Part shown: one piece after another, positions 12,298 to 13,871 of the stretch
Numbering within the stretch: position 1 is the first letter of the stretch
Layout of the letters: the number at the start of each line of letters is the position of its first letter
NCBI GenBank assembly: GCA_016203665.1
Contig: JACQMJ010000004.1
Coordinates: 4,214 to 68,213 of the forward strand
DNA length: 64,000 bases
Direction: 5' to 3'
Source: Candidatus Sungiibacteriota bacterium
GTDB lineage: Bacteria; Patescibacteriota; Minisyncoccia; Sungbacterales; SURF-37
Position numbers and translations under genes: made by a program
Notes under the pieces: model-generated
Database searches by the model: none
The model's input: only the letters and a program-made list of their open reading frames with translations
What the model was told of the DNA's origin: nothing

Positions 12298-12309
12298 ATT
12301 CGCTAGCGC

Positions 12310-12398
12310 TCGAATCTAAAATTTAAAATACAAAATGCAAAACTTTGGCATCTCGCTTCGCGAGAACTTTTTAAATTTGAATTTTGAACTTTGCATTT
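12310..12398. repeat. AT-rich 7-nt-period arrays flanking a short GC hairpin (rpsE|rplR spacer)
   Basis: ctaaaat ttaaaat acaaaat gcaaaac ... tctcgcttcgcgaga ... atttgaa ttttgaa ctttgca tttcaga. The two halves are partly complementary. Confidence 0.8.
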
Positions 12399-12766
12399 CA
12401 GAATTTTAAGCCTCCCTTACGCGCACCCGCCGCCAGCGCAGCAACCAGACCATGGTAGCGGTAGCGGCCGCGGTCGAAGCGCACGGCTGTAATACCCTTT
12501 GCGATAGCGCGGCTCGCGATCTCCTGACCCACCAGGCTGGCCCGCTGGGCTTGCCCGGTCTCAGCCTTGGCGCGCGCCGGCCGAAGCTCGCGTTCTGATG
12601 CGGCGGCGAGCGTTACGCCGGCAGCGTCGTCAATGAGCTGGGCAGAGAGGTAGCGGTTTGACCGGAACACGGAAAGGCGCGGACGCTCGGCCGTCCCACG
12701 GATGCCAGCCCGGACGCGCCGTTGCCTTCGGGAGCGCTGTATACTGGAGTGTAAATATGGAGTCAT
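12398..12766 (-). CDS. rplR: 50S ribosomal protein L18
   Basis: Start at MTPYLHS... [32 protein letters not shown] motif. The longer ORF to 12934 overlaps rplF and is rejected. Confidence 0.88.
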
Positions 12767-12770
12767 GGAA

Positions 12771-13316
12771 CTAGCCGCCGGTGCTGACGGCCTTTTTGCC
12801 GGCCTTGCGGCGTATAACTTCCCCGCTATAGCGGATGCCTTTGCCCTTGTAGGGTTCGGGCGGGCGGAGGCGGCGGATGCGCGCCGCCACGTCGCCGACG
12901 AGCGCGGCGTCAACGCCGGAAATAAAGATGACATTCTTCTCTACCCTAAAGGTGATTCCGGGCGGCGGCTCCACCTGTACCGGATGCGAGAAGCCGAGCG
13001 CGAGCGTGAGCGCCCCGCCCTCCAGCGCGGCGCGATATCCTATGCCCTCGATCTCCAGGCGCTTCTCAAAGCCGCGGCTCACCCCTTCCACCATGCGCGC
13101 GACGAGCGCGCGGGTGAGGCCCCAGTAGGCGGCGGTCTTCCGCGTCTGTAGCGCCGGCTCGATGCTAACCCTCCTGCCGTCCGCGCTTAAGCGCACCTCG
13201 GGCCGGAGGGTGAGTGAGAGCGTCCCCTTGGGCCCGGCTACGCTGACCAGCTGGCCGTTTTGCGTCACAGTAACGCCGGCTGGGAGCTCAATGGGTTGTT
13301 TGCCAATGCGGCTCAT
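12771..13316 (-). CDS. rplF: 50S ribosomal protein L6
   Basis: [17 protein letters not shown] start, [11 protein letters not shown] near the C-terminus. Confidence 0.9.
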
Positions 13317-13378
13317 GTGATGCCAATAGACGAATGGTACGTCCATCTACGATTCACGAATATATACCCGCATACGGG

Positions 13379-13765
13379 TTACCATACCTCGGCCATGGCC
13401 TCTCCTCCCAGGCCGGCCTTTCGCGCCTCCTCGCCGGTCATGATGCCTTTGGGCGTAGACATGATGAGCGTGCCCGACCCGCCGCGGACCGGGCGGATGT
13501 CCTGCCGCCCGAGGTAGAGGCGCCGCGACGGTTTGGATACGCGGCGGAAACCGGAGAGTCGTGGCTTTGTGCCGTCGTAGGCGAGTTTGACCTCGAGGGA
13601 CTTATGCACTTTCCGCCCGCGCTTCTCCGCGCCGGCGATAAACCCCCGCGCGGCCATGACGCCGGCGATGCGCTCCTTGAGGTGCGAGTACGGCAGGACA
13701 ACCGAATCGTGGCGCGCACGGTAGGCGTTCGAAATTCGTACCAGCATGTCAGCAATGGGGTCCAT
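13379..13765 (-). CDS. rpsH: 30S ribosomal protein S8
   Basis: MDPIADMLVRISNAYRARH start; 128 aa. Confidence 0.9.
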   Translation of the reverse strand: MDPIADMLVRISNAYRARHDSVVLPYSHLKERIAGVMAARGFIAGAEKRGRKVHKSLEVKLAYDGTKPRLSGFRRVSKPSRRLYLGRQDIRPVRGGSGTLIMSTPKGIMTGEEARKAGLGGEAMAEVW

Positions 13766-13778
13766 AGTTGAATGCGCT

Positions 13779-13869
13779 CAAATGCAAAATGCAAAATGTA
13801 AAATTTCGGAAGCTGCCAAAGACAGCGGCCATAATTTTGATTTTTGATTTTTGATTTTTGATTTTTTCA
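13779..13869. repeat. AT-rich 7-nt arrays (CAAAATG x3; TTTTGAT x4) in the rpsH|rpsN spacer
   Basis: caaatg caaaatg caaaatg taaaatt ... ttttgat ttttgat ttttgat ttttgat ttttttc. Confidence 0.85.
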
Positions 13870-13871
13870 TG

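Follow-up and report, generated by a model that had tools for sequence, protein, structure and literature searches.

Heptanucleotide tandem arrays form palindromic spacers between operon genes of Sungbacteria and other Parcubacteria

The locus described here raises the question of why the gaps between genes of a bacterial ribosomal-protein operon are filled with tandem repeats of 7 nucleotides (nt). The window, that is the whole stretch of DNA analysed, comprises 64,000 nt from Candidatus Sungiibacteriota bacterium (assembly GCA_016203665.1, contig JACQMJ010000004.1). It is 59 % GC, with the S10-spc-alpha cluster of ribosomal-protein genes on the (-) strand, and the genes identified in it include those for S5, L18, L6, S8, L5, L15, SecY, S3, L16, L22, S7 and EF-G. 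The two spacers of main interest, referred to as focal, lie between the genes for L18 and S5 (written L18->S5, in order of transcription) and those for S14 and S8. The likeliest reading, in which somewhat better than even confidence is placed, is that the arrays belong to dispersed palindromic repeats that were built by slippage, are co-transcribed as stem-loops and are mostly passengers. The comparison set consisted of the SecY-anchored loci of ten Sungbacteria and about 70 other Parcubacteria (about 1 Mb; 965 kb in the scan for arrays); these loci carry L numbers, and L081 corresponds to window positions 3379-23765.

A period-specific scan of the window, in which every period was scored identically, returned seven arrays at period 7 and none at periods 4-6 and 8-15, and no period-7 array was found in 20 dinucleotide-preserving shuffles of the window. 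With relaxed thresholds, 10-16 arrays were found at period 7 and 0-8 at any other period, and period 7 accounted for 14 of the 42 rows returned by Tandem Repeats Finder (TRF). The three or more head-to-tail 7-nt copies that define the class were found by TRF and by the scan, with copy numbers of 2.9-6.4 and matches of 67-100 % (Table 1). All the arrays listed in the original prediction, which had been made from the sequence letters, were found where it had placed them, and its expectation of a period-7 excess over shuffled sequence held in the window and likewise in the autocorrelation of Parcubacteria spacers given below. The arrays had been described as sharp AT-rich outliers in DNA of about 60 % GC, which is correct for the AT-rich arrays (12-31 % GC) but not for the GCTGAAG array at 16892, at 60 % GC. 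The elements are 84-124 nt long and 31-39 % GC. At least 40 different heptamer units were counted, the GC-rich GCTGAAG among them.

Table 1. Heptamer arrays and the spacers and genes in which they lie, in window coordinates
Feature	Position	Strand	Location and details
Element, family A	12298..12397	(-)	L18->S5; 100 nt, 32 % GC
Array	12313-12342		L18->S5 spacer; TRF and scan
Array	12369-12393		L18->S5 spacer; TRF and scan
Element, family A	13766..13870	(-)	S14->S8; 105 nt, 31 % GC
Array (AAATGCA)x3.6	13780-13804		S14->S8 spacer; TRF and scan
Array (TTTTGAT)x4.6	13835-13866		S14->S8 spacer; 100 % matches; TRF and scan
Spacer	25030..25113	(-)	S7->EF-G; near-perfect 35-nt-arm hairpin, 'ACGAAAU' family, GGCUACGAAAUACGAAA...UUUCGUAUUUCGUAGCC
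Array	25040-25113		S7->EF-G spacer
Spacer	32521..32644	(-)	CobA-like->ComEC; 124-nt hairpin, (UUUGGUU)/(AACCAAA) arms; TRF rows 32583-32648
Array	32526-32641		CobA-like->ComEC spacer
Spacer	42013..42130	(-)	HIT->S21; hairpin, (CCAAAUC/CACAAAU) + (GGGAUUU/UUGGAUU) arms; S21 start 42012
Array	42022-42113		HIT->S21 spacer
Spacer	16881..16973	(-)	L22->S3; 93 nt, 54 % GC; (CCUUCAG)x4.3 on mRNA, GC-rich unit
Array (GCTGAAG)x4.3	16892-16921		L22->S3 spacer
One-armed array (AUAGAAA)n on mRNA	7513..7537	(-)	RuvX last codons and stop (...DKKMENRK-stop)
One-armed array (UAGGAAA/AUAGAAA)n on mRNA	16183..16213	(-)	S3 C-terminal tail and stop (...EKEKIENRK-stop)
In-frame array (GCUAAAA)x4	51006..51034	(+)	topA; encodes AKSQKLKAKS
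In-frame array (CCAAAUU)x4.7	60124..60156	(-)	leuS; encodes IKFQIPKSKFQI
Weak in-frame array (CAAAAAG)x2.9	56520..56539	(-)	serine hydroxymethyltransferase gene; NSKIAKSKK

Both focal spacers have the same anatomy. On the mRNA, the L18->S5 element runs from an A-rich arm with the units AAAGUUC/AAAAUUC/AAAUUUA (the complement of 12369-12393), through the GC clamp UCUCGC-GAA-GCGAGA (12351-12365), to a U-rich arm of UUUUGCA-type units (the complement of 12313-12342) and GAGCGCUAGCGAAU-AUG. The order in S14->S8 is (AAAAAUC)x4.6 from 13835-13866, the clamp GCUGUC-UUU-GGCAGC (13812-13829), (UUUUGCA/UUUUACA)x3.6 from 13780-13804 and UUUGAGCGCAUUCAACU-AUG. In each case the U-rich arm is followed by a GAGC-bearing tail (UUUGAGC in S14->S8, UUCGAGC in L18->S5), with the AUG 14-20 nt past the tail. 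Both fold as long stems of 5-bp helices interrupted every 7 nt, modestly more stable than shuffled sequence (z -1.6 for each; -24.8 kcal/mol for L18->S5), and the arms are non-complementary at the same two positions of each 7-nt unit. The pairing of an A-rich half with a T-rich half as an inverted repeat, which had been proposed at the outset, was borne out. This layout of A-run array, clamp and T-run array, termed family A, recurs in at least 12 genomes and is present in L140, which is 38 % GC and has 58 % SecY identity.

Three other spacers of the window form stronger hairpins, namely S7->EF-G (25025-25120; inverted repeat I2; -41.6 kcal/mol, z -7.3), CobA-like->ComEC (32515-32650; -57.3 kcal/mol, z -9.2) and HIT->S21 (42010-42135; z -3.2). 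The inverted arms are 18-38 nt long and constitute terminal inverted repeats, and conserved termini, GGCTACGAAAT...ATTTCGTAGCC, are shared across loci. The termini of the S7->EF-G element recur at L2->S19 and L24->L5 in L088 and at L14->L24 in L090, and the HIT->S21 family is also found at Map->RuvX in L084 and S5->L15 in L089. No significant hairpin was found in the L22->S3 spacer (z +0.17). The description of the spacers as hairpins thus applies strongly to three of them and modestly to the two focal ones, and fails for the arrays at 7513, 16183 and 16892. Two further kinds of palindrome were noted. Hairpins with the termini CCCGTTAGAG...CTCTAACGGG lie at 22462-22551, upstream of the EF-Tu gene, and at 5607-5721, in the GalT/TIM gap, and also in spacers of L084 and L090. 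The S10->L3 (294 nt) and L3->L4 (165 nt) spacers each hold one GC-rich palindromic element of about 150 nt (19764-19911 and 20631-20777); these share sequence (...GACGCGCCTCGCGATGGTCTCAAA...), and of the four differences from the NCBI record that are described below, three fall in one of the two copies.

Arrays were also found at the ends of genes and within them. RuvX and S3 both end in ENRK because arrays encode their last codons and stops. The array in RuvX, which is unstructured (z +1.6), ends 14 nt ahead of the glycosyltransferase start, and that in S3, which forms no hairpin, lies 15 nt ahead of the L16 start. In L084 and L090 the tail common to S3 and RuvX is VKQVK followed by the stop and is derived from a TTAAG-type family. 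The array in topA forms a 7-residue insertion (21 nt, or three units) relative to solved TopA sequences, and the segment encoded by the array in leuS is equal in length to that of the Thermus thermophilus and Escherichia coli leucyl-tRNA synthetases. The arrays had originally been placed in spacers between operon genes; intercistronic gaps are indeed occupied, but arrays also code for the 3' tails of genes and for internal segments of proteins.

The identity and reliability of the sequence were established by comparison with public data. The window SecY (P0001) has an identical NCBI sequence named Candidatus Sungbacteria, SecY homologues at 73-91 % identity all belong to Sungbacteria or Parcubacteria, and the S8 protein is encoded on a contig of 181 kb in the metagenome-assembled genome (MAG) GCA_964559385.1. 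The window itself derives from a MAG, and low-complexity repeats are prone to error, so that assembly or polishing artefacts, which had been named as a way in which the original prediction could fail, had to be considered. A Logan assembly of SRR12113424, made independently, is however 100 % identical to window positions 11777-13858, which hold both focal spacers, and the four differences found against the NCBI record all fall outside the heptamer arrays, in a GC-rich repeat and in L4; the arrays are therefore taken as real sequence. Dozens of independent metagenome assemblies (JGI, ENA, NCBI and Logan; many samples) show the same architecture, and arrays stand in frame within conserved genes. 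An artefact is refuted for practical purposes, and its probability is regarded as negligible.

The phenomenon is widespread in Parcubacteria. In the 965 kb of scanned loci, 125 arrays were found at period 7 and 2-40 at other periods, and an inverted partner within 150 nt was present for 68 of 153 arrays (44 %) against 6 (4 %) in a scrambled control. Gap lengths in a matrix of 21 operon junctions across the SecY-anchored loci are bimodal, either tight (<20 nt) or 80-120 nt; in L140, L130, L168, L119 and L167 nearly every junction holds an element, and in L132, L118 and L136 none does. The 232 long spacers (60-200 nt) have a median fold z of -3.3, with 68 % below -2, and the best autocorrelation period was 7 in 84 of them against 25 of 232 after shuffling. 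Unit types such as AAAAATC and ATTTTGN, and the units TTTTGAT, TTTTGCA and TTTCTAT, recur in distant genomes, the first two across very distant Parcubacteria. The GC clamp was rejected as a general feature; it is present in only 20 of 158 hairpin spacers and therefore marks a sub-family. The A-rich arm comes first in 81 palindromes and second in 39 (22:4 among pairs of A-run and T-run arms). This property is unchanged by reverse complementation and so is uninformative on strand, and an orientation bias relative to transcription was dropped as a candidate; the polarity gives a hairpin followed by a U-rich tract on both strands.

Several other features of these loci were recorded. Spacers of L093, L097, L098, L103 and L111 (S14->S8, L18->S5) contain a longer class of element of 155-331 nt, which starts with (A)GGGCTT(T/G)G(T/C)C, holds GGTGCTC, ends in most copies with (A/T)TTGGC or ATAGGC and is found repeatedly at operon junctions in several Parcubacteria; a structured RNA and a MITE (miniature inverted-repeat transposable element) are both possible identities. 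The L3->L4 gap measures 500-640 nt in some Sungbacteria and carries a minus-strand open reading frame (ORF) of 84-149 amino acids (L084 584-838, L088 214-663), for which no Pfam match was found, and L090 has a fragment of a GIY-YIG gene upstream of L4. In L071, a Saccharimonadales MAG, an identical GGGACATGCAACATGCAACATGGGATAATCGC with (ACATGCA)n heptamers is present at many sites of one locus (6034, 7199, 18224 and others) and represents a one-armed heptamer element family in another class within the CPR (candidate phyla radiation).

The elements are distributed patchily among close relatives. In L083, the closest relative (90 % SecY identity), the L18->S5 gap is 9 nt, and across L083, L088 and L091 it is 4-9 nt; the S14->S8 gap of L085 is 2 nt. 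The original statement that such junctions span only a few nucleotides in other bacteria agrees with the element-free relatives, in which L18->S5 measures 4-15 nt and S14->S8 measures 2 nt. Filled and empty sites among relatives and multiple dispersed copies, both hallmarks of MITEs, are thus present. Three unrelated families occupy S14->S8 in different Sungbacteria, and across the ten Sungbacteria loci only five of 97 orthologous spacer pairs can be aligned, the other 92 being unalignable. The same families are found at non-orthologous junctions and in other genomes (GGCTACGAAAT...ATTTCGTAGCC, CCAAATCACAAGCACC..., TTAAG-type), and near-identical copies occur within genomes, three in L103 and at least nine in L130. 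Turnover of array units is visible at 87 % SecY identity: the 5' arm of S14->S8 is (AAAAATC)x4 in the window and (AAAATTC)x2(AAAATCC)x2 in L089, with total length equal. Such concerted change of units, together with arms that mismatch at the same two positions, is better explained by slippage that homogenises each arm independently than by selection for pairing. A different element, of 105 nt with terminal inverted repeats CCCAGTAGTAG...CACTACTGGG and flanked by CATG, is single in L085 (18725-18833) and a tandem duplicate in L086 (9568-9781), in assemblies otherwise 100 % identical, and related copies lie at other junctions of L085.

Heptamer tandem repeats have been on record in bacteria since 1990, and to our knowledge neither the cause of the 7-nt period nor a function has been established. 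They are the best-known over-represented class of long simple sequence repeats (SSRs) in prokaryotes, the most abundant long SSRs in many genomes, and an origin by polymerase footprint and slippage has been proposed for them (PMC4679880, PMC4692102). The excess of heptamers among long SSRs is credited to the survey of Mrazek 2007 and to Huang and Mrazek 2014, as cited in PMC4679880 and PMC4692102, and these two citing papers also describe three units of short tandemly repeated repetitive (STRR) sequences in Calothrix, GGGAATC repeats with inverted pairs in Xanthomonas, and TAACTGA repeats in Beggiatoaceae and cyanobacteria. The original remark that no described repeat family was recognised therefore goes too far: the heptanucleotide class is well known, and a literature search found no description of its palindromic intercistronic form in CPR bacteria or Parcubacteria. 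The elements described here share with the STRR sequences of Calothrix, Nostoc and Anabaena, and with the Mrazek class, many 7-nt tandem units, an excess confined to period 7, intergenic positions near start codons, occasional inverted pairs and the lack of an established function. They differ in that the host is a CPR bacterium of the Sungbacteria and not a cyanobacterium, in that the arrays form the arms of a palindrome of about 100 nt, often with a GC clamp, inside ribosomal-protein operons, and in that nearly every junction is occupied in some Parcubacteria. The units, TTTTGAT, AAATGCA, TTTCTAT and others, are also not those of STRR1-3 in the strict sense (CCCCAGT, TTGGTCA and CAACAGT in heterocystous cyanobacteria).

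Control loci confirm the kinship with the known heptamer class. In the Anabaena locus L020, pairs of the form (AGATTTT)n...(CCAAAAT)n and (TGGTCAT)n...(CAACTGA)n, with CAACTGA/TGGTCA-type units, lie just upstream of ATG codons, and the Chloroflexia MAG L033 holds 27 arrays within 11 kb, arranged as (AATTCTT)n-loop-(AAGAATT)n; in both, arrays stand as inverted pairs between ribosomal-protein genes. The Saccharimonadales MAG L071 has 13 one-armed arrays. The Xanthomonas and Beggiatoaceae/cyanobacterial repeats are likewise lineage-specific intergenic arrays near start codons, some in inverted pairs, which vary in length and sequence between close species and are absent from orthologous regions of relatives (PMC4692102, PMC4679880), but each lineage has one dominant unit, G-quadruplex-prone or TAACTGA, whereas dozens of AT-rich units and a two-armed palindrome are found here.

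Similarities to non-tandem repeats are equally clear. Correia/CREE, ERIC, RUP, SPRITE, RPE and Nezha elements are also about 100-150 nt long, palindromic and dispersed in multiple copies, and are co-transcribed, as those described here are predicted to be; SPRITE shares the terminator-like order of A-tract, hairpin and U-tract. MITE-like repeats show filled and empty sites, fusion to or extension of the 3' ends of ORFs, and in-frame presence in genes, and such effects on ORF 3' ends are well documented for bacterial repeats of about 100-170 bp (PMC3184786). In contrast to MITE-like repeats, the arms here are heptamer arrays and not unique terminal inverted repeats, members of one family have their arm units in common but often differ in the loop, neither a convincing target-site duplication nor a parent insertion sequence or transposase was found (window genes), and the family spans genomes of 38-61 % GC. 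The REP/BIME (REPIN)-RAYT system also consists of intercistronic operon hairpins, reaches very high numbers in some genomes and has been proposed to stabilise mRNA; REP elements, however, are GC-rich imperfect palindromes of 20-40 nt without tandem substructure, unlike the longer and AT-richer elements described here, and no RAYT was seen in the window. The elements are accordingly placed as a MITE- or SPRITE-like form of the heptanucleotide SSR class and not as STRR sequences in the strict sense, and their behaviour is that of dispersed, fast-turnover repeat DNA, in agreement with features documented for Correia, ERIC, RUP, SPRITE and RPE.

The period-7 specificity, the palindromic layout, the patchy and fast-turnover distribution, the fusion to gene ends and the in-frame arrays were observed directly. 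From these we infer that slippage generates the arrays, that the elements are mobile and co-transcribed, and that they may affect the mRNA. According to the favoured reading, non-coding palindromic elements of about 80-135 nt, with arms made of heptanucleotide arrays of the STRR or long-SSR class, would have colonised gene junctions of Sungbacteria and other Parcubacteria. A sequence-independent mutational process, most probably strand slippage during replication or repair, would make and homogenise tandem copies in a 7-nt register wherever a change in length is tolerated, namely in spacers, in last codons and, in multiples of three units, in permissive protein loops. Elements would also disperse or be replaced, families reaching new junctions and one junction coming to hold unrelated families in related genomes. 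An element that lies within an operon would therefore be co-transcribed and able to fold as a long imperfect AU-rich stem, capped in family A by the GC clamp; its A-rich arm often provides the stop codon of the upstream gene, and its end, about 14-20 nt ahead of the next AUG, leaves the start codon free. Most copies are judged to be neutral or mildly selfish passengers, with a minority co-opted.

Some observations weigh against this account. No array indels were found between the near-identical assemblies L081/L082, L087/L088 and L121/L122, so that slippage was not directly observed; the suggestion of replication-slippage hotspots, in the sense of contingency loci, gained no support from these comparisons. 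A check of roughly 50 window genes revealed no transposase (Y1 transposases included), RAYT or other mobilising gene. The elements show no convincing target-site duplication; (C/A)ATG stands at both ends of a few copies, but the ATG is part of the unit and of the start codon. Between the window and L089 the S14->S8 element has 82 % identity, rising to about 95 % when the clamp and 3' arm are compared, whereas the adjacent S8 has 67 % protein identity and 48 % identity at third codon positions, and within-genome paralogous copies diverge more than these orthologues; purifying selection is therefore argued for at least this copy. The A-first polarity of 81:39 is not predicted by a purely neutral model, and the recurrence of units across very distant Parcubacteria hints at a conserved trans-acting partner.

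These points bear on a functional account, in which the elements are intercistronic stem-loops that act as RNase III/E/Y processing sites or as barriers to 3' exonucleases and allow differential stability or independent initiation of each cistron in an organism poor in Shine-Dalgarno (SD) motifs. The conservation of the S14->S8 copy far past synonymous sites is in its favour, as are the unpaired start codon beyond each element, the recurrence of the 3' motif UUUGAGC ahead of start codons and the occupation of essentially every ribosomal-protein junction in some genomes. When the regions upstream of 29 genes in L081 were inspected, most genes of the ribosomal-protein cluster had no SD-like motif at a usable distance, which suggests from sequence SD-independent or coupled initiation, and AU-rich leaders could therefore matter for initiation. 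REP, ERIC and Correia elements, which influence mRNA stability or processing, provide precedents. The account, the main rival of the favoured reading, is nevertheless considered unlikely, given that 92 of the 97 orthologous pairs are unalignable and close relatives manage without the element, that the arms consistently mismatch at two of seven positions with no co-variation, and that the focal hairpins are only marginally above shuffles. Sense folds were the better in 12 cases and antisense folds in 17 (p = 0.52), and selection at the RNA level, as judged by this difference, was rejected. The Rfam 15 covariance models, ribosomal-protein leaders included, gave no match in 12200-14000 even at E <= 1, and the window-wide gathering search returned only tRNAs, RNase P and a 23S fragment. 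A more elaborate version, in which the hairpins are cis elements of a Parcubacteria-wide post-transcriptional punctuation system, is held to be rather improbable. A putative oligomeric protein with a 7-nt footprint per protomer, for which a cold-shock or OB-fold-type protein is a candidate, would read the A-rich and U-rich arms and open or cleave the stem-loops, and processing, stabilisation or initiation would then be independent for each cistron of the SD-poor polycistronic mRNA. Such a system would explain why some genomes have an element at every ribosomal-protein junction, the A-first polarity, the persistence of unit types across very distant genomes and the conservation of S14->S8 past synonymous sites.

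A protein contacting about 7 nt per protomer could also use the arrays simply as binding sites and so control the hairpin, transcription or translation, with a cold-shock/OB-fold protein on single-stranded U-rich RNA or DNA, or a ToxR/H-NS-type regulator on TTTTGAT heptads, as candidates. The strict 7-nt register whatever the unit sequence and the recurrence of TTTTGAT, TTTTGCA and TTTCTAT across distant genomes are consistent with such binding, and there are precedents: CspB of Bacillus subtilis binds heptamer repeats with one protein per heptamer (reviewed in PMC4679880), TTTTGAT heptads in the Vibrio cholerae ctx promoter recruit regulators, according to a preprint (bioRxiv 2021.05.14.444153), and heptamer deletion in Nostoc alters reporter output (bioRxiv 2022.06.06.494920). 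At least 40 units, including a GC-rich one, are however unlike a sequence-specific site, arrays occur inside coding regions as well, and no candidate binding protein was seen among the window genes scanned, so this explanation is deemed improbable. Still less probable are SPRITE-type intrinsic, possibly bidirectional, terminators or attenuators that tune read-through or block antisense transcription. The family A layout and the A-first polarity resemble them, and both focal clamps score as terminator-like on the antisense strand; on the sense strand the U-runs begin 6-9 nt past the clamp rather than within 0-2 nt of a GC-rich stem, and no site was called. Terminator-like sites in the region numbered 28 against 21.9 +/- 5.3 in shuffled sequence, the clamp is rare among hairpin spacers, and termination within essential ribosomal-protein operons would be costly. 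The attenuator role listed in the original prediction was thus discounted, and, with counts of sigma-70 promoters inside the elements also at shuffle level, canonical terminators and promoters were rejected. It is highly improbable that the spacers encode small proteins or relay ORFs, such as MKKSKIKNQKSKLWPLSLAASEILHFAFCI, that keep translation coupled. Such an ORF starts 1 nt past the upstream stop and ends shortly ahead of the next start, and ORFs that span the spacer are present in both focal cases (31 and 27 codons, stop included) as well as in the orthologues from L089 and L088, with 31 codons including the stop in both the window and L089. Yet only 14 of 50 spacers have one, stop trinucleotides across 142 operon arrays show no sense depletion (296 sense, 253 antisense), open-frame coverage is 0.89 on both strands against 0.865 +/- 0.018 for shuffled sequence (50 spacers), and the low-complexity peptides arise as by-products of an A-rich stretch followed by a U-rich one; the two controls rule out the relay as a general explanation. 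DNA uptake sequences were likewise rejected because each genome holds dozens of different units instead of one motif.

Features of the window away from the arrays were also noted. A stand-alone match to positions 2120-2221 of bacterial 23S rRNA (the L1 stalk) lies at 51963-52063 (+), between topA and parB (53-59 bits, E about 5e-15), and is followed by a perfect 16-bp hairpin and T-run at 52116-52148; no L11 or L1 genes are nearby, and the match could represent a mimic RNA that binds L1 or a piece of rRNA encoded on its own. The RNase P RNA at 589-1079 (+) is 491 nt long against 367 nt for the model, with a stretch of 109 nt in place of 13 model positions, notably around 698-799; part of this stretch folds as a long hairpin (-51 kcal/mol, z -7.4) with short-period CGA-containing quasi-repeats. 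The insertion is read as an extended P12 and resembles the P12 of heterocystous cyanobacteria, which is expanded by STRR sequences. The class II ribonucleotide reductase gene (1268 amino acids; 34117-37923, (-) strand) contains an intein with a LAGLIDADG homing-endonuclease domain, and the leucyl-tRNA synthetase (968 amino acids; 57970-60876, (-) strand) has a NUDIX-domain match at residues 416-516, within the synthetase.

The heptamer phenomenon thus extends to the CPR, where arrays commonly make up both arms of a palindrome of about 100 nt, and in some genomes, although tiny and streamlined, one such element is tolerated or put to use at nearly all junctions of the most highly expressed operons. 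For the annotation of CPR genomes this means inflated 'intergenic' space, artefactual ORF extensions and small ORF calls, and lineage-specific C-terminal tails. With saturated and element-free relatives, one conserved copy and in-frame arrays, these loci form a compact comparative system for hypotheses on slippage register, mobility and RNA function.

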